Positions 8,921 to 24,608 of a stretch of 64,000 nucleotides of DNA are shown here, piece by piece (the stretch's first letter is position 1; the number at the start of each line of letters is the position of its first letter). Below the pieces are notes generated by a model that ran no database searches, was not told the DNA's origin, and saw only the letters and a list, made by a program, of their open reading frames with translations. Position numbers and translations under genes: made by a program. The DNA lies in the IMG/VR virus record IMGVR_UViG_3300032224_000809, positions 1 through 64,000 of that record; one strand, 5' to 3'. This DNA is from a virus.

Positions 8921-9373
8921 ATGGCAAATAAAAATATAGATAATACAGATAATGGCACTGGAGTATTTAATACTAAGGTTCCTGGAATGGATGAGGCTGC
9001 AGATATTCAAGAAGCCCTTCGAATCTACCACTATGGATCAAAAACTCCTCCAGCATCAGAGGCAGACATTGTAAGGCCATCTCTTGTAGGTCATATTAAA
9101 GATATTAAAACAGATATTGCTACCATTAATGCAAAAGGTATTGGAAGCAAATACACAGCCAATGAACCATCATCTATTGTAGATGGAATGATCTGGGTAG
9201 ACTCTGATGTAACTGGTGGAAATGGAGTTCAGTTTGCAACCTCTCAATATCAAACAGCAACACCAACTACTGGTCTTGTTAATGGTTTAATCTGGATTAA
9301 AAAAGGAACTTCACCACTTGAGATGTGGGTTTATGATTCTTCTACTACTGCGTTTGTAAAGGTCGGTGCATAA
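8921..9373 (+). CDS. putative tail fibre connector protein
   Basis: Two P....G.IW motifs typical of phage fibres. Confidence 0.5.
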   Translation: MANKNIDNTDNGTGVFNTKVPGMDEAADIQEALRIYHYGSKTPPASEADIVRPSLVGHIKDIKTDIATINAKGIGSKYTANEPSSIVDGMIWVDSDVTGGNGVQFATSQYQTATPTTGLVNGLIWIKKGTSPLEMWVYDSSTTAFVKVGA

Positions 9374-10023
9374 TGCCAAAATCAATTGATTCAGAATCAA
9401 AAGTAGCATATATATATAGTTCAGAAACAGATAAGTGGCATCCAATTGCAGGAGCGGTTAATACTGGTGCAGCATATACCTGGTCAGCAGATCAGCGGTT
9501 TTCTACTTCTGTAACATTTGAATCTGTAGTTAAAGCAAAGGCTGGAGTAAATAATTTTTTAAACCCAGCAGCAAGAGATTTGGTTTTTACTGATATCTCA
9601 TCAGAAAATAAAAAAGGAATTGTCTGTTTTGTTAGAAATAATGCAGCAGGATTACCAATAAATCAAATTCAATATTTTGATGGAACTAATTGGAGATCAT
9701 ATTCTGATTCTACTTCACTGCTTTCAAAAACCAACACTGCAACATATACAATTGTTTTAGAAGATGCTGGTCGTACAATTATTGCAAACTCAGACACAGT
9801 AAATGAGATTGTTGTTCCAGCAAACAGCACTACTCCATTTGTTATTGGTCAAAGGCTTGACATTATTCGTTACGGCGTTGGAGTTACATCAATTTCTGGT
9901 GCAAACGGGGTAACTATTCAAAGCAAGAATTCTAATAAGAAGATTGCAGCAAGATACTCAGGAGCAACACTTATTAAATTAGAAGAGAACACCTGGATAC
10001 TTGTTGGCGATTTGATAGCGTAA
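9373..10023 (+). CDS. tail fibre/adaptor protein with C-terminal domain shared with 17489..18901
   Basis: C-terminal YT.VL.D.G...P.NS...F.IG..D....G.G....GVT...RYS.ATLIK...NTW...GDL.A. Confidence 0.7.
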   Translation: MPKSIDSESKVAYIYSSETDKWHPIAGAVNTGAAYTWSADQRFSTSVTFESVVKAKAGVNNFLNPAARDLVFTDISSENKKGIVCFVRNNAAGLPINQIQYFDGTNWRSYSDSTSLLSKTNTATYTIVLEDAGRTIIANSDTVNEIVVPANSTTPFVIGQRLDIIRYGVGVTSISGANGVTIQSKNSNKKIAARYSGATLIKLEENTWILVGDLIA

Positions 10024-10032
10024 GGTTTAAAA

Positions 10033-11412
10033 ATGCTGACCACACTAGGGCTATTTGGAAAAGGTATGGTATCAGTACCATCTTTAGTTGGTTTGTCAAA
10101 AACAGAAGCAGAGTTGACAATAACCGCAGCAGGATTGATTATTGGAAGTTCTGCATCAACAGATACAAATACACAGGCAGATAATTTAAAACTTTTTTCA
10201 CAAAATCCACCAAGTGGAACTGAGGTTGATTATGAAACCTCTGTTAGTTTTACTTATAAAACTTATGTTGCTCCAGTTATTAATACAATTAATACAATTA
10301 ATACAATTGATACTATTAACACAATAAATACTATCAACACTATTGCAACAATTAATACAATTAATACTATCGATACAATTAATACAGGACCACAGCCATG
10401 CTGCCAAGATGATGATGCTGGCTATTGTGTCAATGTGGGTTCAGATGGATATGGAACATGGATGCAATATCAATACGATCCATGTACTGCAAGTTCTTGT
10501 CCAGCAAGAAGCATGGGCAGAACATTCTGTGGAGTTCCTAACACAATTAACACAATTAACACAATTAACACAATTAACACAATTGATACAATTAACACAA
10601 TTAACACAATTAACACAATTAACACAATTAATGTGTGCTTGTCAGATGAAATTCCATCAGGAACTGCCTATCGTGCAGAGTGTTGTGGATATGCAGTTAG
10701 AGTTAAGGTTATAGGTTGCTCTGGAACACAAATTGGAACAGCATACTATTGCATTGATTCATGTGCAACTATCGATACTATCAACACTATTAACACTATT
10801 AACACAATTAACACAATCAATACAATCAACACTATTAACACTATCAACACTATTAACACTATCAACACTATTAACACTATCAACACTATTAACACTATTA
10901 ACACTATTAACACTATTGCTACTGGTGGATTCAGTGCTGGATGTTTGCTATACGAAACACCAATTTTGCTTGCCGACAGAACATATAAAAATATTGAAGA
11001 TTTAGAAGTTGGAGATGAACTACTTTCTTTAAATATTTTATCTATACCAGATGAAGAATATCCTACAATACTAGAGTCTTGGAGATCAGATAACATTGAT
11101 GATTCTGTTTTTACAACAACATTTGTAACAGATATAAAGAAAGCAACAAATCCAGGTTATTATTTATTAAATAATAAATTAAAGGTTACCTATGAGCATA
11201 CAATGTTAGTAAAAAGATCCGATGTTTGGATGTTTGTTTCTATGGAGCACGTTGTTGTTGGAGATTATATGGTTGATAGTGAAGGCGATACTATTCGTGT
11301 AGACTCTATTGATTATGATGACTCTGTTGTTAATGTTATTTCTATTGATACAGAAGTAAAAGATATGTATTTTGCAGCAGATATCTTAGTTCACAATATG
11401 TATGCAAAATAA
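10033..11412 (+). CDS. PASTA + (TIN)n arrays + Cys-rich minidomains + C-terminal Hint/BIL domain protein
   Basis: VPSLVG...SQNPPSGT PASTA pattern; G|CLLYETPILLAD...IEDLEVGD block A; TYEH block B; YFAADILVHN terminus. Confidence 0.85.
   Translation: MLTTLGLFGKGMVSVPSLVGLSKTEAELTITAAGLIIGSSASTDTNTQADNLKLFSQNPPSGTEVDYETSVSFTYKTYVAPVINTINTINTIDTINTINTINTIATINTINTIDTINTGPQPCCQDDDAGYCVNVGSDGYGTWMQYQYDPCTASSCPARSMGRTFCGVPNTINTINTINTINTIDTINTINTINTINTINVCLSDEIPSGTAYRAECCGYAVRVKVIGCSGTQIGTAYYCIDSCATIDTINTINTINTINTINTINTINTINTINTINTINTINTINTINTINTIATGGFSAGCLLYETPILLADRTYKNIEDLEVGDELLSLNILSIPDEEYPTILESWRSDNIDDSVFTTTFVTDIKKATNPGYYLLNNKLKVTYEHTMLVKRSDVWMFVSMEHVVVGDYMVDSEGDTIRVDSIDYDDSVVNVISIDTEVKDMYFAADILVHNMYAK
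10279..10923 (+). repeat. three in-frame 9-bp tandem arrays encoding TI(N/D/A): 11, 10 and 17 units
   Basis: 10285-10383, 10543-10632 (near-perfect acaattaac) and 10768-10920. Confidence 0.95.
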
Positions 11413-12001
11413 AATGATAAAGACAGAATACTTTCCTGGGGTAGTTGGATACTCTGGATTAATTCCAGAATCTATTGGTTATGTTGAAGATATTGTTGAT
11501 CTTGCAAATAAAGAACTTATATCTTGGCATAAAACAACAACTGGTCGTGGCAATGTAAATGCTGCAACAGTGATACCAGAATTGCGTCAAGGCTCAGTTA
11601 TTGGTCTTAATGGAATTAGTAAAGAAGAAAAAGTATTTTTGGCGGTATCTACTTTAAAAAATGCAGCAAATCTTGCAGTAAAAGAATGTCTTAATGACTA
11701 TCAAAATAGTTATGGATATTTTGATTTAGAAGGAGAAGGTTGGGCCCTATTAAAGTATGAAGTTGGAGATTTTTTTAAATTGCACACAGATGCCTCTAGG
11801 GCATATCCAAGACAAGTATCTACGGTATACTATATTAATGATGACTACCTTGGAGGAGAAATAAATTTTAAATATATAGACTTAGAATTAAAACCAAAAA
11901 AAGATGAGTTTTTAGTTTTTCCATCAACAAACCTATTTTCTCATTATGCAAAAGAAGTGATAGCGGGTACAAAATATTCAATGCCAAACTGGTTTAGATA
12001 A
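11402..12001 (+). CDS. 2OG-Fe(II) oxygenase (prolyl-4-hydroxylase-like)
   Basis: HTD...YYINDDYLGGE...FPS...H...KY. Confidence 0.88.
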   Translation: MQNKMIKTEYFPGVVGYSGLIPESIGYVEDIVDLANKELISWHKTTTGRGNVNAATVIPELRQGSVIGLNGISKEEKVFLAVSTLKNAANLAVKECLNDYQNSYGYFDLEGEGWALLKYEVGDFFKLHTDASRAYPRQVSTVYYINDDYLGGEINFKYIDLELKPKKDEFLVFPSTNLFSHYAKEVIAGTKYSMPNWFR

Positions 12002-12010
12002 GGATAAAAA

Positions 12011-12604
12011 ATGGAAAAAACAATATTAGGTGATAAGATAGTGGTATACCACAATATATCTAAAACCCCAATGGTAATTATTGATGCAGCCAATGAAATC
12101 ACCAATAAATATCCAAATGTTGGATTTAAAAATGCCACAATTAATAATCATCAATATGATACAAGTTTAAGATCTTGTACCGTTTTTAGTTTATTTCCAG
12201 ACAAATCTGATAAGTCACTTGCTGGAGTAAATGCAAGATTAGAAAAGGTAAAACTTAATCAAAAAATAATTAGCCAAACATCCCTTGCATTGATTGATTT
12301 TATTAAAGAATACGGATTCAAGATTATAGAAAGAGAAGCCTGGGAATTGTTATCATATGAAGAAACTCAAAAACTTACCTGGCACTCAGATAATGGAGAT
12401 CCACACCCTTGCCTAGTTTCCCTGGTTTATTATTTAAATGATGACTATGAGGGTGGAGAGGTGGAGTTTAAAGACCATATAGGTACTCCTTTTAAACCCT
12501 CTGCAGGAGATCTTTTGATCTTTCCATCATCAGTAGAATATGTTCATAGGGTTCTTCCAATAACAAGTGGAAGAAAATATGCTGCTATCTCCTTTTGTAA
12601 GTAA
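12011..12604 (+). CDS. 2OG-Fe(II) oxygenase (prolyl-4-hydroxylase-like)
   Basis: HSD...YYLNDDYEGGE...FPS...HRVLPITSGRKY. Confidence 0.9.
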   Translation: MEKTILGDKIVVYHNISKTPMVIIDAANEITNKYPNVGFKNATINNHQYDTSLRSCTVFSLFPDKSDKSLAGVNARLEKVKLNQKIISQTSLALIDFIKEYGFKIIEREAWELLSYEETQKLTWHSDNGDPHPCLVSLVYYLNDDYEGGEVEFKDHIGTPFKPSAGDLLIFPSSVEYVHRVLPITSGRKYAAISFCK

Positions 12605-12606
12605 AA

Positions 12607-13161
12607 CTACTTAGGAAACTTTAACATCCACTCTTTAGTCTTAGCAGTAATGCCCTTCCAAGAAGACCAGTTCTCCCCACCATTAGACATGTAGTATGCT
12701 ATTTCGGCATTTTTGACGGGATTGAAAAGTTCAGCATTAGATTCAATATCAAACTTGTCTCTACGATCAGGACCAAGAGAGTCAATCATATTGATCTGAA
12801 ACATTCCGTATGAAGAGTCTCCTGTTTTGTGATTGCCATTAAAAGCCAGTGGACGGCCATTAGATTCCTTCTTTGCAATAGCCCAAGCCACGACTAGATC
12901 ATTGCCCTTAAAACCAACAAGGCCAAGAAGTTCCTTAAGTTCTAAATCTGTTAGAGATGTCTTATTTTCAAAACTCTCTAGTCTTTTTGCCTTAGAAACC
13001 AAAAAAACCTCTTTCGAGGCGTTTTGTGATGACTGAGCCTGTTCCAGGCTTAGGTTATTTTTTGTATTATTAGCATTAGCAGCGTTTATTGATGTTCCAA
13101 CCAACAGACTAATACTGAGTATGCTGATGATTTCCTTGTTTCTTTCGATCCATTTAATCAT
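12607..13161 (-). CDS. lysozyme-like lytic transglycosylase with N-terminal signal/TM segment
   Basis: AIAKKESNG catalytic Glu, SYGMFQIN, WSSW; AAGGAGG RBS before ATG 13161. Confidence 0.85.
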   Translation of the reverse strand: MIKWIERNKEIISILSISLLVGTSINAANANNTKNNLSLEQAQSSQNASKEVFLVSKAKRLESFENKTSLTDLELKELLGLVGFKGNDLVVAWAIAKKESNGRPLAFNGNHKTGDSSYGMFQINMIDSLGPDRRDKFDIESNAELFNPVKNAEIAYYMSNGGENWSSWKGITAKTKEWMLKFPK

Positions 13162-13275
13162 AGTTTCCTCCTTAGAAAACAATAACACCCTGGTAGGTGT
13201 CTACTGATAAGTATAACATAATTTTACTAGGTTTGGCAGCAAAAGTCAAGTTTAAGCGTGGTATAATTATTTATC

Positions 13276-13806
13276 ATGGCAAAAGACTCAGTTAAATATT
13301 CAATACCTTATCCAGAGGACTCTGATCCTGTTGATATAACTAATGATATTAAAGTTATTGTTGATAGATTAGAAACAATTCTTCCACCCCTTGGTGTCTC
13401 ATATTTTGAGATTCTTGTAAGAAATGAAACAGGTAATACAATTCCTGCGGGGTATCCAGTTTATGCAGTAGGATCAAATGTAGATTCAAATAGTACTGTA
13501 AGAACTAAGATTGCTCTTTCTACTCCAGTAATAACAAAGCCAATTTTAGGTTTAACAAAAACATCTCTTGGAAATAATTCTAATGGCGTTGTAGTTGTTG
13601 CTGGTGTTGTTGAAGGAGTAAACACAAGTTCATTTTTAGCAGGAGATGTTTTATACGTTGCAAATGGCGGGGGACTAACAAAGACTCGTCCTGACTCTGG
13701 TGGAGCAGCAGTAGGAATTGTAGGACATGCAGCAACTACAGGAGTAGTAATAGTTCAAGCAAAAGGAAACGGTACATGGGGCGCACTTGCTGCTGGCCTC
13801 TCGTAA
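13276..13806 (+). CDS. putative structural protein
   Basis: IPYP..SDPV N-terminus; GDVLYV...GGLT motif seen in phage decoration and tail proteins. Confidence 0.55.
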   Translation: MAKDSVKYSIPYPEDSDPVDITNDIKVIVDRLETILPPLGVSYFEILVRNETGNTIPAGYPVYAVGSNVDSNSTVRTKIALSTPVITKPILGLTKTSLGNNSNGVVVVAGVVEGVNTSSFLAGDVLYVANGGGLTKTRPDSGGAAVGIVGHAATTGVVIVQAKGNGTWGALAAGLS

Positions 13807-13824
13807 TCGTGGTATAATCTAAAT

Positions 13825-14232
13825 ATGCCAACATTAAGAACAACTACAGTCACATCATCTCAGGCAACTAATGCCAATGGCGAGATTGAAATTGGAGCAA
13901 CTCCTCCAATTGTAAGATGGACTGTTGTAAAAGGCGATAGCGCATCATTTAGAATTTATGTTGAAGATGATAAGCAGGTTGCTATTAACCCAGATGATTA
14001 TTCAATTAAAGCAGACTTTAGACGTGGATCTTCTTTGCTATTTTCAGTTTTTCCCTCAAAAACAGCATTTGATCTTGCAGGAGAATTTACAGTTTATTTA
14101 GCACCAGGGCAAGCCAAACTTTTATCAACAGGAGATATCTTTGATGTACAGTTAACAGACCCAGTAGTGGTTTGGACTGTTTGCAGAGGCGTTATGAACG
14201 TTATTGCAGAAGTCACTGATAGAACGGTTTAA
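13825..14232 (+). CDS. virion structural protein, BppU-N/Ig-like family
   Basis: KGDS...FDVQL...GVMNVIAEVT. Confidence 0.6.
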   Translation: MPTLRTTTVTSSQATNANGEIEIGATPPIVRWTVVKGDSASFRIYVEDDKQVAINPDDYSIKADFRRGSSLLFSVFPSKTAFDLAGEFTVYLAPGQAKLLSTGDIFDVQLTDPVVVWTVCRGVMNVIAEVTDRTV

Positions 14233-14489
14233 TGGCAAAAAGACTTGTTTCTACAATTCTCCCAGCCGTTGCCCTTGGTTTAATAAATCTTAATCCCGTT
14301 GCAGATTTAACAATTAACAAAGCAAACAATATTGCTTTTGAAGTAGCATCAGTACCAAAAAAAGTATTGGTAAATGAAAGTTTACCTTTCAGACTGCGTA
14401 TATCTAACATAGGTTTAGATGGGTATACAAGGCAGAATCCAGCACCGATAGGAGTAGCAATTATTGGCTACAGCAATTATATTCTGTAA
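14232..14489 (+). CDS. hypothetical protein
   Basis: ORF track; TAATG coupling. Confidence 0.6.
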   Translation: MAKRLVSTILPAVALGLINLNPVADLTINKANNIAFEVASVPKKVLVNESLPFRLRISNIGLDGYTRQNPAPIGVAIIGYSNYIL

Positions 14490-14511
14490 AAAATAATGCT
14501 ATAATAACAAC

Positions 14512-14958
14512 ATGGCCCAAATATCACTCACAGCACTTAAGCAAAAATTCCAGACTGGTGATCGCCCATCACAGGCAGATTACGAAGATCTAATTGACAC
14601 TACCGCAGCACAAGCAACACGTGCAGGCGTATTTGGCAATAATGACAATACCATCTACGGTATTGAAAATGCATCAGTAATTGATAACTTTGATGCAACT
14701 GAATGGAGAATGGTTAAGTACCTTATCTCTATATCTAAGAATTCTGGTGGCGTAAATAAATACTATGCTACAGAAATGACCATCTTGGTTGACGGAGTAA
14801 ATGTATCTGTTAACGAATTTGGAACTATCGACAACGATGGGAATATGGGAACCATTACTGTCTCTCGCACTGGAAATACCGTAACTTTAACAGTTACTCC
14901 AGACCCTGCGATCAAGCCAATCACTGTACGTTATGCACGTATGGGATTAAAGGCATAA
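14512..14958 (+). CDS. putative tail fibre-associated protein
   Basis: LK.KFQTGDRP...Y.DLID N-terminus; beta-rich C-terminal domain resembling the end of 14975. Confidence 0.6.
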   Translation: MAQISLTALKQKFQTGDRPSQADYEDLIDTTAAQATRAGVFGNNDNTIYGIENASVIDNFDATEWRMVKYLISISKNSGGVNKYYATEMTILVDGVNVSVNEFGTIDNDGNMGTITVSRTGNTVTLTVTPDPAIKPITVRYARMGLKA

Positions 14959-14974
14959 TAAGGAGATATAAAAA

Positions 14975-16942
14975 ATGGCATCTACAGTAAATAAAGATTT
15001 TAAGATCAAGAATGGTCTTATCGTTGAAGGCGCATCCGCAACAGTCGGTGGCTCAGACGTATTAACAAAGAAGCAGGCAGACATTGATTACATTGTTTCA
15101 CTTGCAGGTGGCGGAGCAGATTCTGCTAACGTTGCAAACAAGGTAGTAAAGCGTGATGCATCAGGTAACTTTGCAGCAGGAACAATCACTGCAGCACTAA
15201 CTGGTAACGCATCAACAGCATCTACACTTGCTACACCAAGAGCAATTGCACTTTCAGGTGATGTTTCTGGTACAGCAAACTTTGATGGTTCAGCAGGAAT
15301 CACAATTACAACAACTCTTAACACAGCATTTGCTACAGATGCAGAAGTTGCTACAGCAAAGTCAGAGGCTATTGCTTCAGCAGCATCAGATGCAACTACA
15401 AAGGCTAATAATGCTAAGTCTGGAGCAGAAGCAACCGCAGCATCTGCACTTTCAACACACGAAGCAGATACAACAAATATTCATGGAATTGCAGATACTG
15501 CACTTCTTGCAACAAAGTCTTATGCTGATGGAAAGGCTTCAGATGCACAAGCAGCAGCAACAACCGCTGCAGCAACAGATGCTACAACTAAGGTTGCAGC
15601 CGAAGCAACTGCACGGGCAACAGCCGTTACAAATGCAATTTCTACTGCTGCATCAGATGCAACTTCTAAGGTTGCAGCAGAAGCAACCGCTAGAGACACA
15701 GCAATTGGAACAGCAATTTCAACAGAAGTTACAAACCGTAACTCTGCTATCTCTTCAGCAATTTCAACAGAAGTTACAAACCGTAACTCAGCAATTTCTA
15801 CTGCAGTTGCAGCCGTTGTTGACTCAGCACCTGCAATGCTTGACACATTGAACGAACTTGCAGCAGCACTTGGAAATAACCCAAATGTTATTACAAACTT
15901 AACCACTACTATTGGAACTAAACTTCCTCTCGCTGGTGGAACACTAACTGGAGCACTTGTTCTTTCAGGTGCACCAACAGCAGATCTTCAAGCAGCAACT
16001 AAGGGCTATGTTGATACAGCAAATACAAATCAGTCAACAACTCTTACAACAGCAATTGCAACTGCAAAGTCAGAAGCAATTTCTACTGCTTCATCAGATG
16101 CTACAACAAAGGCTAACGCAGCCCAGTCTGCTGCAACAACAGCAGCAGCAACAGATGCTACAACAAAGGCTGACGCAGCAAAGGCTTTTGCTACAGCAGC
16201 AGATACAACACTTCGCACAGCAGTAACATCTGATATTGCAACTGCAAAGTCAGAAGCAATCACTGCAGCAGCATCAGATGCTACAACTAAGCGTGATGCA
16301 GCAAAGACTTATGCTGACGGACTTATTGCAACAGAAGTTACTAACCGTAACTCAGCAATCACAGCAGCAACTGGAGCGCTATCAACTTCAACAATTGCAG
16401 AAGGTACAAATAAGTACTTTACAGATGCTAGAGCAGTCGCAGCAGTATCTGGTGCAATTACAGCAGCAGTTGACGCAATCAATACAGATGCAATTGAAGA
16501 AGGTACTTCAAACCTTTACTTCACAAATGCTCGTGCACTAACAGCAGTTGGTGGATCAGTAACAACAGCAATTGCAAATGGTGATTCAACAGCATCACCA
16601 ACATATCTTGCTGTAAAGTTGGGAACACTTGCAAAAGAGTTTGCAGCAACAGTTAACGTACCAACAGCATCAACAGCAACAGCATATTCATGGCCAATTG
16701 CAGATTTCAGATCTGCAAAGGTACTTGTAAAGACCAAGAATGGAACACACACTGAAATTTCAGAGTTACTCCTAACACTTGATACTTCAAACAACATTGC
16801 TATTACAGAATACGCACTTGTTGGAACAAATGGCACACTTGCCACAGTTACAGCAGACGTAAACGGTACTGACGCAAGAATTCGGGTAACAACAATCAAT
16901 GCATCATCAGATGTATACGTTGTTGGAACTCTTATTGCTTAA
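14975..16942 (+). CDS. long Ala/Thr-rich tail fibre
   Basis: DATTKA and EVTNRN repeats, LDTLNELAAALG, EGTNKYFT motifs. Confidence 0.8.
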   Translation: MASTVNKDFKIKNGLIVEGASATVGGSDVLTKKQADIDYIVSLAGGGADSANVANKVVKRDASGNFAAGTITAALTGNASTASTLATPRAIALSGDVSGTANFDGSAGITITTTLNTAFATDAEVATAKSEAIASAASDATTKANNAKSGAEATAASALSTHEADTTNIHGIADTALLATKSYADGKASDAQAAATTAAATDATTKVAAEATARATAVTNAISTAASDATSKVAAEATARDTAIGTAISTEVTNRNSAISSAISTEVTNRNSAISTAVAAVVDSAPAMLDTLNELAAALGNNPNVITNLTTTIGTKLPLAGGTLTGALVLSGAPTADLQAATKGYVDTANTNQSTTLTTAIATAKSEAISTASSDATTKANAAQSAATTAAATDATTKADAAKAFATAADTTLRTAVTSDIATAKSEAITAAASDATTKRDAAKTYADGLIATEVTNRNSAITAATGALSTSTIAEGTNKYFTDARAVAAVSGAITAAVDAINTDAIEEGTSNLYFTNARALTAVGGSVTTAIANGDSTASPTYLAVKLGTLAKEFAATVNVPTASTATAYSWPIADFRSAKVLVKTKNGTHTEISELLLTLDTSNNIAITEYALVGTNGTLATVTADVNGTDARIRVTTINASSDVYVVGTLIA

Positions 16943-16964
16943 AAAATTAAAATAATAAAGGGGC

Positions 16965-17429
16965 GTGATCACTTTGGCTACAGTCAATAAAGACTTCAAA
17001 GTAAAAAATGGACTACAGGTCGCAGGAACTGCAGTTTTCGGGGGAACAGTACAGGTAGCAACACCAGTATCTGCTTCTGATGCAGCAACAAAGGCATATG
17101 TAGATTCAAAATCAAGTCAAATGGCTTCAGGTGCAATCGCTCCTTCCAACCCAACAGCGGGTGCACTTTGGCTAGACTCTCTAACTAATAGAGTTAATGT
17201 TTATTCTTCAGCAGGATGGGTAACACTTGCTGCAATTGATGACACATTAGATCTACCACAGCACATCCACGATACAGCAATCGATGGTACAGGATTTATT
17301 GTTTCACAATTCCGCAGTGGCGGAAGTTTCAATAGTCCGCAAGGATCAGGTCTCGATGGAGGATCTCCAAGTTCAACTACTTGGGACGTTTCATTCGATG
17401 GTGGTTCAGCAGTAGATAACTTCAATTAA
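16965..17429 (+). CDS. short tail fibre-associated protein
   Basis: N-terminus TVNKDFKVKNGL shared with 14975; AATKAYVD. Confidence 0.65.
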   Translation: MITLATVNKDFKVKNGLQVAGTAVFGGTVQVATPVSASDAATKAYVDSKSSQMASGAIAPSNPTAGALWLDSLTNRVNVYSSAGWVTLAAIDDTLDLPQHIHDTAIDGTGFIVSQFRSGGSFNSPQGSGLDGGSPSSTTWDVSFDGGSAVDNFN

Positions 17430-17488
17430 AAATTGATGTTATAATAGTACAGAAAGACATCCGCAGAACGGATAAAAGGAGAATATAA

Positions 17489-18901
17489 ATGGCAACTAGA
17501 ATGCAACAGCGCAGAGGAACTGCAGCCCAATGGACGGCAGCAGATCCAATTTTAGCAGCAGGAGAAATTGGGTTTGAAACAGACACCAGCCAGTTCAAAA
17601 TGGGCGATGGCGTTAATGCATGGTCAACTCTCTCCTACTTTAAGAACTTAGAAGACTTGGGTGGTACTCTTGATGATTACATCCCACTAACCCAAAAGGG
17701 TGCAACCAATGGTGTAGTCCCTCTTGATGGCTCAGGTAAGATTCCAATTGGATACCTTACAAACCTTATTGCAAACGCACCAGAAGCACTTGATACACTT
17801 AAAGAACTTGCAGATGCAGTTACTTATGTTACAAATCAAGTTTCTGGACATAATGGAACAACAACAAATGTTCACGGTATCGCAAATACAGGAGCACTTG
17901 CTACAACTACAGCAGTTACTACAGCAATTGCGACACACGAAGCAGATACAACAAATGTTCACGGAATTGCAGATACATCAGTACTTGAAACAACATCTGG
18001 AGCACAAACTAAGGCCAATGCAGCAGCACTTGCTGAAGTAAATGCTCACAAGGTAATCACAACTTCAGTACACGGAATTGCTGATACAGCACTTCTTGCT
18101 ACAAAGGTATATGCCGATGCAGTAGGAACAACAGAGGCTTCAAGCCGTGCAACAGCAATCTCAACACATAATTCAGCAACAGCAAACGTACACGGAATTT
18201 CTGATACATCTGCTCTTGCTACAAAGACATATGCTGATGGTAATGTTACAACACACAACTCAGCAACAACAAGCGTACACGGAATTGCAGATACTTCACT
18301 TCTTGCAACTAAGTCATACGTAGATACAGCAGATGCTCTTAAGGCAGCGCTTGCATCACCAGCATTCACTGGCACACCAACTGCTCCAACAGCAACAGCA
18401 GGAACAAATACTACACAGGTAGCAACAACAGCGTTCGTAGGAACAGCAGTTTCAGCACTCGTAGCATCTGCTCCAGCAGCACTTGACACACTTAATGAGT
18501 TGGCAGCAGCGCTTGGTAGCGATGCAAACTTCTCAACAACAATGACAAATGCTCTTGCTCTAAAGGCAAGCAAGGCTGAACTTTCAGCAGCAACTGTCGC
18601 ATCATTTAATAACAAGACAACTTCTTACACACCAGTACTTTCAGATGAAGGAAATGTAATTGAAATGGATTCTGCTTCAGCAAATTCTGTTACAATTCCA
18701 CCAAACTCATCAGTAGCATTTACAATTGGTTCATCAATCGATGTATTCCAAAAGGGTACAGGCCAGACAACAATCGTTGCAGGTGCAGGAGTTACAGTTC
18801 TTAATACACCAGGACTCAAGTTCCGTGATCGTTACTCAATGGCAACATTGATCAAGCGTGATACAAATACTTGGATCGTTTCTGGCGACTTGACAGCGTA
18901 A
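17489..18901 (+). CDS. tail fibre with Mtd_N/hyaluronidase-N-like start, HGIADT repeats and shared C-terminal domain
   Basis: QRRGTAAQW...GEIGFETDT..FK.GDG; five H-x7-HGI repeats; ends ATLIKRDTNTWIVSGDLTA. Confidence 0.8.
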   Translation: MATRMQQRRGTAAQWTAADPILAAGEIGFETDTSQFKMGDGVNAWSTLSYFKNLEDLGGTLDDYIPLTQKGATNGVVPLDGSGKIPIGYLTNLIANAPEALDTLKELADAVTYVTNQVSGHNGTTTNVHGIANTGALATTTAVTTAIATHEADTTNVHGIADTSVLETTSGAQTKANAAALAEVNAHKVITTSVHGIADTALLATKVYADAVGTTEASSRATAISTHNSATANVHGISDTSALATKTYADGNVTTHNSATTSVHGIADTSLLATKSYVDTADALKAALASPAFTGTPTAPTATAGTNTTQVATTAFVGTAVSALVASAPAALDTLNELAAALGSDANFSTTMTNALALKASKAELSAATVASFNNKTTSYTPVLSDEGNVIEMDSASANSVTIPPNSSVAFTIGSSIDVFQKGTGQTTIVAGAGVTVLNTPGLKFRDRYSMATLIKRDTNTWIVSGDLTA

Positions 18902-18932
18902 TACAAATTTAATAAGAAAAAAGGAGATATAA

Positions 18933-20288
18933 ATGGCAACTATTCGTAGAGGTGGTAAAGCAGGTAAATCTGCTAAGGCTGCAGTAAGTTTTTGGGGAGT
19001 AGCCCCAGGGCAACCTTACATCGTAAGCGTAGTCCCAGGTTTTGGTGGAGCATATTTCTCATCAACAGCCGTGATTACATTCAATAAGAATGCTATGGGT
19101 GCCACTCCTTCTTCTTATACAATTTTCGCTAACTCAGTATATGGAACTACTACATTCACAGCAACGTCTTCACCATTTACAGTTACAGGTTTAAGAGCAG
19201 GTACAGCATACGCATTCACAATTCTTGCAAATGCTCCAGTTGGTCAGGCAGCAACAGCAACAACATCTGTAGCGTCTTCACAGAGTAACGCAGATATAAA
19301 GTCTGTTCCTGATGCTCCAACAGGAGTTACAGCATCATCACCATCAGGTGCAACATATGACACAGTGTCATGGTCAGCACCAGCAGATAACGGTGGAGAA
19401 GCAATTACTAACTATCAGATTGAATCTTCTGACGGAAAGTCTGCTACAGTAAATGCTCTTACAACAAATATTGCACAAGAAGCAGGAACAGCACAGACAT
19501 ACCGTGTTAGAGCCTACAATGCTCAGGGTTGGTCAGAATGGTCTGCATGGTCAGCATCTGTTACAACATTCTCATTTGTGCCGTTCTCAGTATTCGGATT
19601 CTCCCCATTCGGAGTATTTGGATTCTCACCATTCGGCGTGTTCGGATTCTCTCCATTCGGATTCTCTCCGTTCGGTGTATTCGGATTCTCTCCGTTCGGT
19701 GTATTTGGGTTCTCACCATTTGGTTTCTCACCATTCGGAGTATTTGGATTCTCACCATTCGGTGTATTCGGATTCTCTCCAGGAGGAGGATGTATTGCTC
19801 CTGATACACTAGTATCAGTTGTTGGTCCAGAAGACACATACATTCAGATTCCTGCAAAGGATGTTGTTACTGGACAAGAAGTATGGGCACACTCATTTGA
19901 TGAAATGATAGATGAAACTGTTGCTGATCCAATGACACTTGCTTTTGATAAATTGACAAACCAAGCAATTGTTAAGACAAACGTTGCATCTGTTGTTGAA
20001 AAAGAAATGCCAGCAACATTGACAATTAACGGGGACTCAACAAAGAAGTATTCAACTGTACAGGGAATTCTATATAAGCGTAATGGAATCTATGGATACA
20101 TTAGTACAGGACTTCTAGAAGTTGGAGACTATGTAATGGAATATGATTACAATTTTCATGCTTTCAATGAGATTCTAGTAACATCAATTGAAATTGATGA
20201 AACTCCATCAACAGTTTATAAGTTTGACATGGAACCAGCAGATACATTTATTGCTGGAAACATGGTAGTACACAATCGTAAGTCATGA
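18933..20288 (+). CDS. FN3 domains + FSPFGVFG array + C-terminal Hint/BIL domain protein
   Basis: PDAPTGV...WSAPADNGG.AITNY...YRVRAYN FN3; GGG|CIAPDTLV; TFIAGNMVVHN terminus. Confidence 0.85.
   Translation: MATIRRGGKAGKSAKAAVSFWGVAPGQPYIVSVVPGFGGAYFSSTAVITFNKNAMGATPSSYTIFANSVYGTTTFTATSSPFTVTGLRAGTAYAFTILANAPVGQAATATTSVASSQSNADIKSVPDAPTGVTASSPSGATYDTVSWSAPADNGGEAITNYQIESSDGKSATVNALTTNIAQEAGTAQTYRVRAYNAQGWSEWSAWSASVTTFSFVPFSVFGFSPFGVFGFSPFGVFGFSPFGFSPFGVFGFSPFGVFGFSPFGFSPFGVFGFSPFGVFGFSPGGGCIAPDTLVSVVGPEDTYIQIPAKDVVTGQEVWAHSFDEMIDETVADPMTLAFDKLTNQAIVKTNVASVVEKEMPATLTINGDSTKKYSTVQGILYKRNGIYGYISTGLLEVGDYVMEYDYNFHAFNEILVTSIEIDETPSTVYKFDMEPADTFIAGNMVVHNRKS
19569..19790 (+). repeat. FSPFG(VFG) peptide array with 8-8-5 higher-order period
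   Basis: Nine FSP units; synonymous codons differ between units. Confidence 0.95.
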
Positions 20289-20293
20289 TGTAA

Positions 20294-21010
20294 TTGCTTT
20301 ACCATCATCATGCGCCAAGGACTTCAGGCCTATTCATTAGATCTGCGGTCCATTTGGCTTTTCAGACCAATAAACTAAAATCAGCAATTGTTTATCATGA
20401 TAGGGCCATTAGTCCAGACATGTTTAAAGATGTTGAGTTTATTTCTGGACACTTAGGGAACTATCCTAATCTATTTATTAAAGATTTAAAATCTTTTACA
20501 ATATTAAGAGATCCAGTTGAGAGGTTTATTAGTTGGTTCTTTTTCATGTATGAAAACTCCAGAAGTTTTGAGGAACTTGAAAAAATATTTGACCAGTGGC
20601 TATATAACCCAGAGATATATCCATACCTTTCAGACATGCAAACAAAATTTTTGACGGGAACTGTAGATGAAGCAGGATTTAACAGCACTAAAAGCATAAT
20701 GGATAAAACCATGAATGAGTGGTTTCTTAAAGATTATTCGTTTGATGAGTCAGTAATGCAGGACAAAGTTGACTCTATTGGTTGTTATACAGTGGAGACC
20801 AGAGATATACTATTAGATGACATAATTAGGTATATGGGTAAAACATATGGCTTTGTCCCAAACTTTCAGCACAGACATATGATGTTTAACTCAAGCACAT
20901 CTAAAAGGTTTGACATAACTGATAAAATGATTAACAGGATTAAAGAACTAAACCAGCATGATATAATTTTATATGAGATGGCAAAAAAGTCTAATCCAAA
21001 GCCACTTTAA
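20294..21010 (+). CDS. sulfotransferase-family protein
   Basis: HAPRTSG (HIPKTAG-like 5'-PSB loop), SGH, LRDPVERFISWF (3'-PB), ELNQHDIILY. Confidence 0.75.
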   Translation: MLYHHHAPRTSGLFIRSAVHLAFQTNKLKSAIVYHDRAISPDMFKDVEFISGHLGNYPNLFIKDLKSFTILRDPVERFISWFFFMYENSRSFEELEKIFDQWLYNPEIYPYLSDMQTKFLTGTVDEAGFNSTKSIMDKTMNEWFLKDYSFDESVMQDKVDSIGCYTVETRDILLDDIIRYMGKTYGFVPNFQHRHMMFNSSTSKRFDITDKMINRIKELNQHDIILYEMAKKSNPKPL

Positions 21011-21050
21011 GCAATATGGTATACTAGTATAAATAGCAAAGGGAGCAGTA

Positions 21051-21716
21051 ATGAACATGAATCAATATCCAACCGATATTCAGAGTGTGAGCAAGTCCAC
21101 TCAGCCACATAAGTTTTTTGAAAGATATCTTAACAATAACCTATCGGTCCTAGCATCAGAACTACAGGATAGATATGAAAAGATTGAAAAAGCAAAAGTT
21201 GTAGGCGTAACTCCAGTAGGTGCTAACGAAGCCTGGAAGCAGTCAAATAGTGTATCAACAATGAAGTGGAGACAGTATAATGTTTTCCAATTCCACTCAA
21301 CTGGTATTTATAATTTGTACAAATCGGTAAAAGATATGACAATTGAAGCATGCGACTACTACGGTATTGATTTTGAAAAAGAAAAGTTTATGCTTCAGGG
21401 ATGGTTTAATATTACTCATGCTGGTAAGGGTAAACTTGATTGGCATGATCATGGTCCAACTGGTGCTCCAAACTTTCATGGGTACTACTCTGTAAGTGCA
21501 GAGCCTTCAATTACCTACTACAAGGTTTTTGATAAGGAGATTGAGAATCATAACAAGAATGATCGTGCAATCCTTTCTGAAATGGGGCATCCACACTCTA
21601 TGGCCGATTGGGACTGGGAAGGTCCAAGAATTACAGTTGCCTATGACGTTATTCCATTAAGAGATATTCAAAAGTTTGGAATGGATCAAGAGCAACATTG
21701 GATTCCACTAGCATGA
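21051..21716 (+). CDS. putative 2OG-Fe(II) oxygenase (TIGR02466-like cupin)
   Basis: WFN...HDH...GYY...H...RITVAYD. Confidence 0.7.
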   Translation: MNMNQYPTDIQSVSKSTQPHKFFERYLNNNLSVLASELQDRYEKIEKAKVVGVTPVGANEAWKQSNSVSTMKWRQYNVFQFHSTGIYNLYKSVKDMTIEACDYYGIDFEKEKFMLQGWFNITHAGKGKLDWHDHGPTGAPNFHGYYSVSAEPSITYYKVFDKEIENHNKNDRAILSEMGHPHSMADWDWEGPRITVAYDVIPLRDIQKFGMDQEQHWIPLA

Positions 21717-22348
21717 TAGCAATGGCAAAACCAAGTCACAAGTTTTTTGAAAGACATTTAAGTCTAGATCTTCCAAAACTCGAAACATCTCTTTTGAGTC
21801 TTAAAGAAAGACTTTCTTCTGAAAATGTTCCAGGGGTAAAAAATAAAGACTATGAGTCAGTAGATAAAGCATCATTTACTACTCAACTAGGAGAGAAGTA
21901 TAATATCTTTCAGTTTCATGATGAGAATATTAGAGCACTTTATTCTTCAATTAGAGACATGGTTTTAGAAGCCTGTGACTACTATGGTATTAATGCTAAA
22001 GATCAAAACTATATGATTCAGGGATGGTTTAATGCTGATAAAAATAGCAAGCCAGAGCCACTACCAAATACATATCTTCATGACCATTTAAACGGTCAAG
22101 GAGCACCAGATTTTCATGGATACTACTGCGTTAATGCAGAGCCTTCATATACAAAGTATATGATTTCAGGAGAGACAGAGTTTTTGAATGTTAATGTTAA
22201 TAACCGTGCAATCCTTTCTGAAACTGGACATGCTCATGGTATTAGCAACTGGCCTTTTGAAAAAGACAGAATCACAATTGCTTATGATGTGTCTCCATTG
22301 CAAAATATGAAAGGCTCACCAGAACAGCATTGGGTTCCAATCCTATGA
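21713..22348 (+). CDS. putative 2OG-Fe(II) oxygenase, paralog of 21051
   Basis: Same HKFFER, YN.FQFH, HDH, RAILSE, RITIAYD and EQHW blocks; ATGA overlap. Confidence 0.7.
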   Translation: MIAMAKPSHKFFERHLSLDLPKLETSLLSLKERLSSENVPGVKNKDYESVDKASFTTQLGEKYNIFQFHDENIRALYSSIRDMVLEACDYYGINAKDQNYMIQGWFNADKNSKPEPLPNTYLHDHLNGQGAPDFHGYYCVNAEPSYTKYMISGETEFLNVNVNNRAILSETGHAHGISNWPFEKDRITIAYDVSPLQNMKGSPEQHWVPIL

Positions 22349-22488
22349 TTAAAAACTTTATTCGTCATCTATTAGGATACAGATCAATAGTACAAAAATG
22401 TCCTGTAACTGGAATAGAACAAACTATAACATTTAATAAACTTACTAAAAAAACAAAAGATGCACACAGAGGTATGAGTTTTAACTAA
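22345..22488 (+). CDS. small basic protein with CPVTG motif, 47 aa
   Basis: Manual translation MIKNFIRHLLGYRSIVQKCPVTGIEQ...; ATGA overlap with the upstream oxygenase. Confidence 0.5.
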   Translation: MIKNFIRHLLGYRSIVQKCPVTGIEQTITFNKLTKKTKDAHRGMSFN

Positions 22489-22577: not shown

Positions 22578-24608
22578 ATGTCAGATTTCTTTAGTTTTAG
22601 GCTTCCAGAAGACTTTGTTGAAAAATATAAAAGCGTTGAAAGCCCTTTTGGCTTTAAAGATGCAGCAGAGAATTCACTTGGAGAGATCACCTTTATCAGG
22701 ACATACTCCAGAATGAAAGAAGATGGAACTAAAGAGCGATGGCACGAAGTTTGTCGTCGAGTAATCGAGGGTATGTATTCAGTTCAAAAGAATCATGCTA
22801 AAGAGAACCGTTTACCCTGGAATGATTATAAGGCTCAGAAATCTGCACAAGAGGCTTTTGATAGAATGTTTAATTTAAAGTGGACTCCACCAGGACGTGG
22901 TATGTGGGCTTTTGGTACTCCCATGGTTATGGAAAAGAAAAATTCAGCAGCACTTCAAAATTGTGCAATGGTTTCAACAAAGGACCTTGACAAAAATGAT
23001 CCAGGGGCTTTGTTTGCTTGGGTTATGGATGCCCTTATGCTTGGTATTGGTGTAGGATTTGATACAGTTGGACAGGATAAGAATTTCTCAATCTATGCCC
23101 CGACAGAACCTGAACAGGTGTTTGAAATTCCAGACACTCGTGAAGGCTGGGTCGAGTCAGTTAGAATTCTTATCAACTCCTATTTAAGAGCAAATCAAAG
23201 TATTCAAAAGTTTAACTACGACCTCATCAGACCCCTTGGTTCGGCCATTAAGGGCTTTGGAGGCGTTGCATCAGGGCCTGCACCTCTTATCAAGTTGCAT
23301 GACCATATAGACCGTGTAATCGGCTCCAGAGCAGGTGAAACACTAGACTCTCGTGCCATTGTAGATTTAGTAAATCTTATTGGTACTTGCGTAGTATCAG
23401 GCAACGTTCGCAGATCCGCAACCCTTGCCTTGGGGAGTGAGGGGGATGAAACATTCATGAACTTAAAGAATTCAGAAATGTTCCCAGAGCGTAATTCATT
23501 TGATTCAGATAATCCAGGATGGGCATGGATGTCTAATAATTCTATTTCAGCAGAAGTAGGAACAAAGTATGAAGACTATGTAGATTTAATTACAGAAAAC
23601 GGAGAACCAGGTTTTATCTGGCTTGACGTTGCTCGTAATTATGGCAGACTAAAGGATGCGCCAGATGGAAAAGACTATCGTGTGATGGGCTTTAATCCAT
23701 GTGCGGAGCAGCCATTAGAGTCTTACGAATTATGTACACTTGTAGAAGTGCATTTAAATCGTCATGACTCTAAGGAGGATTTCCTGCGTACCCTGAAGTT
23801 TGCATACCTATATGGAAAAACTGTAACTCTTGTTCCAACACATTGGCAACAGACAAACGGAATTATGCAACGTAATCGTCGCATTGGTACATCGCTCACA
23901 GGCATTGCATCTTTTGCAGATCTAAAGGGCTTGCCAACAGTTCGTGAATGGATGGATGAGGGATATAACAAAATTCGTCATTACGACAATCAGTATTCTG
24001 AATGGCTATGTGTTCGTGAATCAATTCGTGTAACAACAGTCAAGCCATCAGGATCAGTTTCAATTCTTTCTGGTGCAACTCCTGGAGTTCACTGGGGTCC
24101 TGGAGGAGAGTTCTTCCTTCGTGCTATTCGTTTTGGAAATACAGATCCAATGGTTCATTTGTTTAAAGCAGCGGGATACAAGATTGAAAATGATGTAGTG
24201 TCAGCAAATACATCCGTAGTATATTTCCCAATTAAGTCAGGTCATCCAAGATCTGAAAAAGATGTTACTTTATTTGAGAAGATTGCTCTTGCAGCAACTG
24301 CTCAGAAGTACTGGTCTGATAATGGGGTTTCTGTAACACTTTCATTTGACAAGGAAACAGAGTCAAAGCATGTTGTTCCAGCACTACATATGTACGAGGG
24401 ACAATTAAAGGCAGTATCATTCCTTCCAATGGGAAATCACACATACCCACAACAACCATATACTCAGATCTCTGAACAGGAGTATAATAGTCACGTAGGT
24501 AAGTTAAAGCATATTGACTTTGGGGCAATTTACGATGGTGTAGACAACCTAGAAGCAATGGGCGAGGCATACTGTACAACAGACTACTGCGAGATAAAGG
24601 TGAAATAA
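22578..24608 (+). CDS. nrdJ: class II (adenosylcobalamin-dependent) ribonucleotide reductase
   Basis: PPGRG, NC, GNVRRSA, NPCAEQ.L...ELC, TVKPSG, C-terminal CTTDYC. Confidence 0.93.
   Translation: MSDFFSFRLPEDFVEKYKSVESPFGFKDAAENSLGEITFIRTYSRMKEDGTKERWHEVCRRVIEGMYSVQKNHAKENRLPWNDYKAQKSAQEAFDRMFNLKWTPPGRGMWAFGTPMVMEKKNSAALQNCAMVSTKDLDKNDPGALFAWVMDALMLGIGVGFDTVGQDKNFSIYAPTEPEQVFEIPDTREGWVESVRILINSYLRANQSIQKFNYDLIRPLGSAIKGFGGVASGPAPLIKLHDHIDRVIGSRAGETLDSRAIVDLVNLIGTCVVSGNVRRSATLALGSEGDETFMNLKNSEMFPERNSFDSDNPGWAWMSNNSISAEVGTKYEDYVDLITENGEPGFIWLDVARNYGRLKDAPDGKDYRVMGFNPCAEQPLESYELCTLVEVHLNRHDSKEDFLRTLKFAYLYGKTVTLVPTHWQQTNGIMQRNRRIGTSLTGIASFADLKGLPTVREWMDEGYNKIRHYDNQYSEWLCVRESIRVTTVKPSGSVSILSGATPGVHWGPGGEFFLRAIRFGNTDPMVHLFKAAGYKIENDVVSANTSVVYFPIKSGHPRSEKDVTLFEKIALAATAQKYWSDNGVSVTLSFDKETESKHVVPALHMYEGQLKAVSFLPMGNHTYPQQPYTQISEQEYNSHVGKLKHIDFGAIYDGVDNLEAMGEAYCTTDYCEIKVK

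Follow-up and report, generated by a model that had tools for sequence, protein, structure and literature searches.

Two cassettes of Hint-terminated repeat proteins with adjacent candidate tailoring enzymes in the fibre region of an uncultivated phage

IMG/VR record IMGVR_UViG_3300032224_000809 (74.6 kb, estimated to be 69% complete) comes from an uncultivated, siphovirus-like phage with a genome of about 112 kb, complete relatives of which are 112–116 kb, and the window analysed here is the first 64 kb (64,000 nt) of that record. Two cassettes of similar organization are present within a block of fibre-like genes in the window, each with a gene for a fibre or adaptor-like protein, a gene for a repeat-array protein ending in a Hint domain, and genes for candidate tailoring enzymes. 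An original prediction, made from the sequence, located all of the open reading frames (ORFs) correctly and described a twice-repeated system for modifying virion proteins, resembling those that make RiPPs (peptides produced by ribosomes and modified after their translation). The features of the first cassette (cassette A) are as follows.

9373–10023, + strand: adaptor-like fibre protein, 216 aa, whose C-terminal ~95 aa (nt 9736–10020) match a domain of the fibre encoded at 17489
10033–11412, + strand: protein A, 459 aa, with a PASTA domain (nt 10069–10254), Thr-Ile-Asn (TIN) arrays, two 6-Cys modules, a Hint domain and the tail MYAK
10285–10383, 10543–10632 and 10768–10920, + strand: the TIN arrays of protein A
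10942–11397, + strand: Hint A, C304–N455, ~152 aa
11402–12001, + strand: prolyl 4-hydroxylase (P4H)-like 2-oxoglutarate (2OG)-Fe(II) oxygenase 1 (PF13640, E 4e-13; HTD128...H...K)
12011–12604, + strand: P4H-like 2OG-Fe(II) oxygenase 2 (PF13640, E 2e-14; HSD125...H...R/K)

Protein A matches the Pfam PASTA profile with 29.2 bits (cutoff 23.2), and the predicted count of 38 TIN triplets is exact: the TI[N/D/A] units form arrays of 11, 10 and 17 with the two 6-Cys modules between them. The Hint domain is bounded by the junctions TGGFSAG|C304 and VHN455-MYAK. The products of 11402 and 12011 were correctly recognized as P4H-like oxygenases, scoring 50.5 and 54.6 bits against PF13640 (cutoff 27) with an intact HxD...H iron triad and the basic 2OG-binding residue, and they share 34% identity with each other. 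Proline is absent from the TIN arrays, so the two enzymes cannot be prolyl hydroxylases of that array, and 'P4H' is used here as the name of a fold family only. The TIN unit was also considered as an N-glycosylation sequon, an idea that was dropped since N-T-I is not N-x-S/T.

The second cassette (cassette B) contains the following features.

17489–18901, + strand: tail-fibre protein, 470 aa, with an Mtd_N N-terminus, a repeated shaft and the common C-terminal domain (nt 18617–18898)
18933–20288, + strand: protein B, 451 aa, with two FnIII domains, an array (aa 212–286, nt 19566–19790), a Hint domain and the tail RKS
19791–20276, + strand: Hint B, C287–N448
20294–21010, + strand: sulfotransferase-like protein, 238 aa (PF03567, Sulfotransfer_2; marginal, 25.4 bits with a cutoff of 22)
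21051–21716, + strand: 'HDH' oxygenase-fold protein 1, 221 aa (no Pfam match; assigned by AlphaFold2 (AF2) and Foldseek)
21698–22348, + strand: 'HDH' oxygenase-fold protein 2, a paralogue of the 21051 protein
22345–22488, + strand: conserved 47-aa ORF (CPVTG), overlapping the stop of the second HDH gene

Protein B has tandem FnIII domains (fn3, 48 bits with a Pfam cutoff of 25; Foldseek E 6e-11) and a 75-aa array composed only of the residues F, G, P, S, V and T, including eight FSPFG units. Its Hint domain lies between the junctions GGG|C287 and VHN448-RKS, and C287 is the sole cysteine of the protein. In the AF2 model the FnIII and Hint domains have pLDDT values of ~85–92 (Hint ~90) and the array, at ~31, is predicted to be disordered. 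No protein in the window other than A and B has strong tandem peptide repeats; long ORFs in other frames or on the other strand of the arrays, at 10746–11096 (− strand), 19523–19843 (− strand) and 10343–10714 (+ strand), which read as LIV and NPNTPNGE repeats, were taken to be artefacts of the repeats and not genes.

Assignment of the 20294 protein as a sulfotransferase stands insofar as it exceeds the PF03567 cutoff, by the small margin listed above; its homologue at locus L028 (loci in related contigs are given L numbers) falls below that cutoff with 18.3 bits. The motifs PRTSG and RDPxxRxxS, which we take to be the 5'-PSB and 3'-PB motifs that bind 3'-phosphoadenosine 5'-phosphosulfate (PAPS), are invariant among 20294 homologues at 34% identity. 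The two HDH proteins are 42% identical (E 1e-56), have no Pfam match, and yield a profile with no sequence match in the PDB; none of the 966 homologues of the 21051 protein in a public protein collection (genomes and metagenomes) has a Pfam domain. The AF2 model of the 21051 protein (pLDDT 82.5, pTM 0.84) has the 2OG-oxygenase jelly-roll (DSBH) fold, and its nearest Foldseek matches are the uncharacterised marine proteins 2rg4 and 3bvc (E 8e-6 to ~1e-5, TM 0.61–0.68), followed by PHD1/2 and P4H at TM ~0.6. Residues H132-D133-H134, H143, H180 and H182 are invariant in the family alignment with a spacing that differs from the canonical HxD/E...H triad. The original prediction is borne out for this pair in paralogy and predicted fold. 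The C-terminal half of the CPVTG ORF (QKCPVTGIEQT.TFNKLTKKTKDAHRGMSFN) is invariant in relatives sharing only ~85% DNA identity; this peptide, which had been counted as part of the cassette, is conserved, and nothing ties it to the pathway.

The proteins encoded upstream of the two Hint genes end, as had been proposed, in a common domain (95 aa, 43% identity, BLASTP E 8e-20). The C-terminus of the 9373 protein is matched by PHROG tail and virion families, and the 17489 protein matches Pfam Mtd_N (E 5e-13) and many PHROG tail-fibre families. Homologues of this 95-aa C-terminal domain are encoded upstream of most of the Hint genes surveyed. At one locus (L101, 285–3074) a single ORF encodes an adaptor-like protein (homologous to that at 8921 in the window), the common fibre C-terminal domain, Pro-Thr linkers, Cys-rich modules, a TIN array and a Hint domain; by Rosetta-stone reasoning, such a fusion hints that adaptor and Hint protein are contiguous in the fibre, and it supports the view that the repeat-Hint protein rides on the preceding fibre. 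A complex prediction for the adaptor C-terminal domain with the PASTA N-terminus and Hint A gave a score of 0.01, which counts neither for nor against binding.

The predicted layout of PASTA or FnIII, array and Hint is borne out, by Pfam for the N-terminal domains and by profile matches to solved Hint-fold chains for the C-termini. A profile of the A and B C-termini together matches 6tmm/6y75 (E 2.8e-7) and the BIL domain 2lwy (E 1.4e-6), a profile of B-type Hint domains alone ranks a BIL domain and inteins at the top (best E 1.1e-3), and Hint A and Hint B align with an hhalign probability of 99.3%. Pfam detects neither domain, a single-sequence search of the PDB is marginal (E 0.5), and a Foldseek search with the full protein B model returned FnIII matches only, so that the Hint fold is unconfirmed by structure comparison. 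Type-A BIL domains are defined by Cys1, a C-terminal His-Asn and the lack of Cys, Ser or Thr at +1, which sets them apart from inteins and type-B BILs (definition as quoted in PMC4031507), and on these features Hint A and Hint B fit the type-A class. In our alignments Cys1 and the terminal His-Asn remain invariant at identities as low as 32%, and at +1 the relatives have M, F, Y, R, K, G, A, L or V. Block B reads TYEH in Hint A and STVQ in Hint B, and in the B family it is mostly S-L-E-Q, or S-L-E-H. The arrays of proteins A and B stop three to seven residues short of Cys1, as described originally; the glycine said to precede Cys1 holds in the window lineage only, and F, Y, W, S, A, V or G is found there among relatives. 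A lysine at +2 after His-Asn (window 20277–20285) is invariant in the B-type Hint family, and A-type tails (window 11398–11409) also have a lysine near the C-terminus; these tail lysines may have a role in Asn cyclisation or as an internal nucleophile.

When 1.84 billion representative proteins were searched with a profile, the Hint family was seen to comprise at least 55 clusters (at 50% identity) with E ≤ 1e-30 and at least 257 with E ≤ 1e-10. Of 74 long representatives, 71 carry the Hint domain at their extreme C-terminal end, and most bear aromatic/Pro tandem arrays running up to Cys1 (YFPP, FGFSP, YSFTP, WFPP, YYAP, PVAPP). The B-type Hint profile, run on 185,579 prokaryote genomes, found only two weak, unrelated matches, both to metagenome-assembled genomes, and no prophage or host clue. 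Among cultured phages the Hint domain is found bare, in the tail-fibre modules of Erwinia and Dickeya jumbo phages and Phage NCTB, with no enzymes; the homologues in the Erwinia and Dickeya phages are annotated as virion or tail-fibre proteins, and those of Erwinia phage pEa_SNUABM_5 (L114, 4035–5468) and Phage NCTB (L115) combine collagen-like repeats with a C-terminal Hint domain 28–32% identical to Hint A, without adjacent tailoring enzymes. Fibre proteins ending in a Hint domain thus extend beyond the enzyme-linked system. A different Hint-plus-oxygenase arrangement is seen in two IMG/VR contigs (L022, 988–3192; L024, 5618–7822), where a 734-aa protein with three tandem Hint domains (PT-HINT, E 4.5e-29), and an N-terminus that is ATP-grasp-like by eye, precedes three P4H-like genes.

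These distributions bear on whether we are dealing with selfish inteins in decay beside repeats that arose by slippage, neither with a function of its own. The arrays are indeed tandem repeats at the DNA level, with 75–95% matches between units, and array length varies among relatives; nonetheless, there is no homing endonuclease, the Hint domain is found at the extreme C-terminus and not as an insertion within a conserved host protein, its catalytic termini show no variation across at least 55–257 clusters at 50% identity, and array composition is strongly constrained (six residue types in protein B). We consider a selfish origin of this kind scarcely credible.

Orthologues of protein A are of two types, with either TIN arrays or FSVFAFTP-type and Pro-Thr segments at identical linker positions (proteins P0001–P0006 are of the latter type). 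P4H-like genes of the same family as the window pair directly follow all 11 TIN-Hint genes for which there is downstream DNA (the window, L003, L005, L096–L098 and L101–L105). Orthologues of 12011 are seen in nine of the ten relatives, at 84–96% identity in L003, L005, L096 and L098 and at 54–60% in L101–L105, and this is the one of the window's two oxygenases that recurs beside TIN arrays in both close and distant relatives; 11402 is present in close TIN-type relatives and in L105 (48% identity), and absent from FSVF-type relatives. In L101–L105 the Hint domain is only 48% identical to that of the window and the proteins have three differing N-terminal architectures (the adaptor-like fusion of L101, PASTA and Pro-Thr linkers in L102, and a 1255-aa protein in L103), yet a TIN array remains adjacent to Cys1, with the 12011 orthologue as the following gene. 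P4H-like genes beside arrays of other types (FFAPP clusters) share just 27–37% identity with the window pair.

The oxygenase pair is missing from all four FSVF-type loci (L007, L008, L009 and L099), and in L007 and L099 a GT60-type N-acetylglucosamine (GlcNAc) transferase gene (PF11397) is present in its place. DNA comparison with L008 gives the strongest evidence. Window and L008 DNA share 92–96% identity as far as nt 10080 and once more from nt 12605 on; between these positions only the Cys module and the Hint domain align (74–76%), the arrays differ, and both oxygenase genes are missing from L008. As the window backbone is nearer to the array-swapped L008 than to the TIN-type L003 and L005 (85% identical throughout), the array, Hint and oxygenases travel together as one recombination unit, and were replaced as one block in L008. 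Arrays of the FSVFAFTP type that lack adjacent enzymes resemble the FSPFGVFG array, and may be served by the cassette-B enzymes of the same genome.

Cassette B was followed in viral contigs searched with the sulfotransferase-like protein as seed, which gave 66 loci, 48 of them with upstream DNA. A Hint-terminated ORF lies directly upstream of the sulfotransferase-like gene in 47 of these 48, with gaps of −7 to +19 nt, and in 21 of 22 clusters at 80% identity; the homologues fall into eight clusters at 60% identity. The Hint proteins at these loci follow a common plan of FnIII, tandem array and Hint, with arrays of the types xFFAPP, FFPP/FFP, YFPP, PIIAT and FSPFGVFG, and the gene upstream of them is a fibre gene, often with the common C-terminal domain. 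The proposed order of fibre or adaptor, repeat-Hint protein and tailoring enzymes is thus real and maintained far beyond the window genome. Its duplication is more restricted, as the window lineage has two cassettes and complete FFAPP-type genomes have one.

The sole exception to the upstream Hint gene (L041, 4369–7259) has a Gly-rich 174-aa ORF and a 227-aa ORF upstream, with no Hint domain, and an AspH-like gene downstream. The 227-aa ORF is DUF6065-like by eye, although unmatched in the search, and the locus resembles the glycine-rich-peptide operons of Iyer et al. 2010.

Oxygenase-like genes are present downstream of the sulfotransferase-like gene in all 59 loci with a near full-length homologue. 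In most lineages, such as those with xFFAPP or FFPP arrays, what follows the sulfotransferase-like gene is an AspH-like gene with five or six P4H-like and one or two DUF6065 genes, in place of which the window lineage has its two HDH genes. Several of the arrays are nearly all Phe and Pro, and an array of only these residues could serve as a sulfotransferase acceptor only after hydroxylation, which fits with the presence of oxygenase-like genes at all 59 loci. Other pairings of array and enzyme are Pro-Thr linkers beside a GT60-type GlcNAc transferase (L007, L099, L101, L102 and L105), an Ala-Pro-rich array with P4H, epimerase and O-fucosyltransferase (O-FucT)-like genes (L027), and, in L021 (6410–8936), a Ser/Thr/Arg-rich repeat protein ending in GGGFY|C-Hint, downstream of which are another Ser/Thr-rich ORF and then a radical SAM gene (PF04055, E 1.3e-6, slightly below cutoff). 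Association of repeat and enzyme types in relatives, the point on which the original prediction was to be judged, is therefore not random: enzyme type tracks repeat type. Cultured phages gave no match in tblastn searches with protein B, the L028 sulfotransferase-like homologue or DUF6065.

This pattern is hard to reconcile with a scenario in which the enzyme genes are auxiliary and unrelated to the arrays, have products that target host proteins, small molecules or nucleotides, and collected in a recombination hot spot beside arrays that are plain flexible spacers. The mosaic nature of phage fibre regions, the lack of the oxygenase pair in L008 and L009 with no other visible change, the position of a third P4H-like gene of the window beside a ribonucleotide reductase (RNR) gene, and the earlier assignment of the tandem dioxygenase arrays of cyanophage Syn9 to secondary metabolism (PMC2938197) would all agree with such a scenario. 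It is opposed by the 47/48 adjacency to Hint genes with near-zero gaps in eight clusters at 60% identity, by the P4H-like neighbours of 11/11 TIN-Hint genes and the persistence of 12011 orthologues across N-terminal changes, and by the replacement of array and enzymes together as one block; we regard it as quite unlikely.

In a true RiPP-like pathway the arrays would be precursors with multiple cores, and modification, then Hint cleavage with further proteolysis, would release them as small bioactive peptides. Short repeated units lie beside tailoring enzymes, including the radical SAM gene of L021, and Hint cleavage would free one end, so that the term 'RiPP-like' of the original prediction fits loosely. 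It fails in that there is no leader or recognition element, no cyclase, and no protease, transporter or other export gene between 9373 and 22488, and that the units are contiguous with no spacers between them. The carriers are, moreover, multidomain proteins of 451–459 aa with PASTA or FnIII domains, encoded in a fibre module and in L101 fused to the adaptor. These absences and the nature of the carriers favour a decorated appendage over released peptides, the latter being very unlikely in our view.

The analysis thus shows domain identities, that of the sulfotransferase with a marginal score, together with gene order, conservation and co-variation, and the repeats are probably substrates of a phage protein-modification system. 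The reading that we prefer, with moderate confidence, is that cassettes A and B are two paralogous fibre-tip appendage modules in which the repeats are modified by the adjacent enzymes and the Hint domain is self-removing. Each module would have three parts: a fibre or adaptor protein with the common ~95-aa C-terminal domain; a modular protein, probably seated on that domain by its N-terminus, in which a wall- or glycan-binding domain (PASTA/FnIII) is followed by low-complexity arrays and a type-A BIL/Hint domain at the C-terminal end; and enzymes for post-translational modification of the array. In cassette A the two P4H-like oxygenases would hydroxylate the Thr-Ile-Asn arrays at a residue other than proline, and in cassette B the HDH pair would hydroxylate the F/S/P/G/V array, with the sulfotransferase then sulfating the hydroxyls; more generally, arrays may be sulfated or glycosylated by adjacent enzymes after hydroxylation. 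Before its departure the Hint domain could act as a cis handle or as a solubility cap for a disordered, hydrophobic array. Formation of the Cys1 thioester would then lead to its self-removal by N-terminal cleavage, Asn cyclisation at the C-terminal junction would free the 3–4-aa tail, and re-ligation of the tail to the array is conceivable, as with type-A BILs. What results would be a flexible filament with chemical decorations at the tip of the fibre, presumably for adhesion to the host surface.

Several considerations weigh against this interpretation. It is from comparative genomics that we infer modification, cleavage, virion location and incorporation, and function. We know of no precedent for action of this P4H subfamily on Thr, Ile or Asn, and the TIN arrays offer no proline; the HDH proteins depart from the canonical HxD...H triad, the Pfam score of the sulfotransferase is marginal, and Hint B lacks the block-B His that is the usual helper of the N-S acyl shift. 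Co-variation in the B family is confounded with phylogeny, both array type and enzyme set following it. In the A family L008 and L009 have Pro-Thr and FSVFAFTP arrays and no adjacent enzyme, and the FSVF type forms one clade nested within the TIN type on the Hint tree, so that one switch explains the close relatives and the co-variation depends on few independent events. The third P4H-like gene (24608) is beside RNR and not beside a repeat gene, which indicates that not every phage oxygenase needs such a substrate.

Alternatively, the Hint domain could be a ligase, with the Cys1 thioester passing the C-terminus of the modified array to an external nucleophile such as a host peptidoglycan amine (a covalent adsorption, targeted by PASTA or FnIII), another virion protein, or a lipid as in Hedgehog. 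The invariance of Cys1 and His-Asn accords with this, as does the position of the array against Cys1, by which its own C-terminus would be the activated group; the PASTA domain of protein A and the lysines at +2 in the B family and near the C-terminus of A-type tails are also in its favour. Type-A BILs are able to ligate via free amines, but cleavage dominates and those characterised give mainly cleavage products (PMC4031507, which reviews Amitai 2003 and Dassa 2004). There is also no sterol- or adduct-recognition region after the Hint domain, Hint B has no block-B His, and the thioester would probably not survive cytoplasmic thiols or water until assembly, so we judge ligation to be unlikely. 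A broader and rather tentative proposal, itself on the doubtful side, is that of a widespread virion-maturation pathway in which the Hint domain would be a cis handle presenting the array to the enzymes and would then link the decorated array through its thioester to the host wall or the virion.

Known systems share parts of this fibre-tip arrangement. Like type-A BIL domains (2lwy), the domains described here are Hint domains of the ~155–165-aa class with no endonuclease, with Cys1 and His-Asn and no Cys, Ser or Thr at +1, on variable surface-type proteins; they differ in being at the very C-terminus with a 3–4-aa tail, on phage fibre-module proteins, after a tandem array and beside tailoring enzymes, and in that the B family usually has Gln for the block-B His. 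The Hog/Hint domain of Hedgehog is likewise C-terminal, with a Gly|Cys junction as in the window, and its N-terminal product leaves with an activated C-terminus, whereas here there is no sterol-recognition region, the intein-type His-Asn end is kept, and the Gly before Cys is unconserved in relatives. Self-removing modules are also known on phage tailspikes and fibres in the form of Peptidase_S74-type C-terminal intramolecular chaperone/autocleavage domains, which have an unrelated fold and a Ser-Lys dyad in place of a Cys thioester, and lack repeat arrays and tailoring enzymes.

For the enzymes, the closest parallel is in the bacterial operons predicted by Iyer et al. 2010 (PMC2938197), which combine a beta-hydroxylase, a PhyH-type dioxygenase and a sulfotransferase with collagen-like or tail-collar proteins; the same authors noted the tandem dioxygenase arrays of Syn9 as unexplained. 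There too a repeat or fibre-like protein was proposed as substrate of adjacent dioxygenases, with the new hydroxyls then sulfated, although those operons are a prediction only, come from bacteria, lack both a Hint domain and aromatic/Pro or TIN arrays, and lie outside a virion fibre module. The P4H of chlorovirus PBCV-1 acts on viral (Pro-Ala-Pro-Lys)n repeats (PMC3634087). It thus provides a P4H-family enzyme and short tandem repeats as its substrate, both virus-encoded, but the virus infects a eukaryotic alga, just one enzyme is concerned, it has proline substrates, and a Hint domain is absent. The PBCV-1 P4H and its substrates are not, to our knowledge, reported to be encoded by adjacent genes. 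L101, L102 and L105 pair a P4H-like gene with PF11397 beside Pro-Thr-rich linkers, reminiscent of the glycosylation of hydroxyproline by the pathway of Skp1 prolyl-hydroxylase and Gnt1 (GT60, PF11397), except that the target would be long linkers and not a single Pro, and that the window has no glycosyltransferase.

The known parts are therefore the type-A BIL/Hint domain, P4H- and AspH-type oxygenases, sulfotransferases, a viral P4H whose substrates are viral repeats, and predicted hydroxylate-then-sulfate operons. The original prediction knew of no phage system with this architecture, and our literature searches agree, giving no description of Hint-terminated phage fibre proteins with tailoring enzymes; mentions of 'Hint' in phages concern inteins in terminases. 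We have not found described the combination of a hypervariable array abutting a C-terminal Hint domain, a phage fibre module and array-specific enzymes in a large uncultivated phage group.

Elsewhere the window codes for a portal, a head protease, a major capsid protein, DnaB and a DnaE-type polymerase, and we take a 2862-aa ORF (38716–47304) to be a candidate tape-measure protein by its size and position. The DnaE-type polymerase (59061–62336) is 55% identical to those of ~127-kb Streptomyces siphophages (BillNye, Circinus and others), and this resemblance together with the PASTA domain suggests an actinobacterial host, for which aquatic low-GC Actinobacteria would be a plausible guess. Megablast of the region found no DNA-level match among cultured phages, and a promoter and terminator scan was uninformative. 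A class II (B12-type) RNR and the gene after it occupy 22578–25138, with the RNR stop overlapping the start of the third P4H-like oxygenase gene (24608–25138), and this pair is maintained in L030–L038. Other members of the fibre-like block are listed here.

7253: collagen-like protein
12607–13188, convergent: SLT lysozyme-like gene
14975: fibre

Phages of aquatic microbes have numerous 2OG-Fe(II) oxygenase genes, in some cases as long tandem arrays, and secondary metabolites were suggested as the substrates by Iyer et al. 2010 (PMC2938197). The cassettes described here offer a concrete candidate protein substrate encoded beside such oxygenases, and the large BIL/Hint family of phage fibre modules points to Hint chemistry in virion maturation or adsorption. 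If the arrays are hydroxylated and sulfated, they would constitute a surface polymer of a kind new to phages, with a possible bearing on host recognition, and they might find use as self-cleaving, enzyme-decorated protein tags. Should the Hint domain act as both handle and ligating group, these phages would couple protein-scale RiPP-like chemistry to Hedgehog-like ligation at the fibre tip, and the tandem 2OG oxygenase arrays of aquatic phages would gain a concrete protein substrate.

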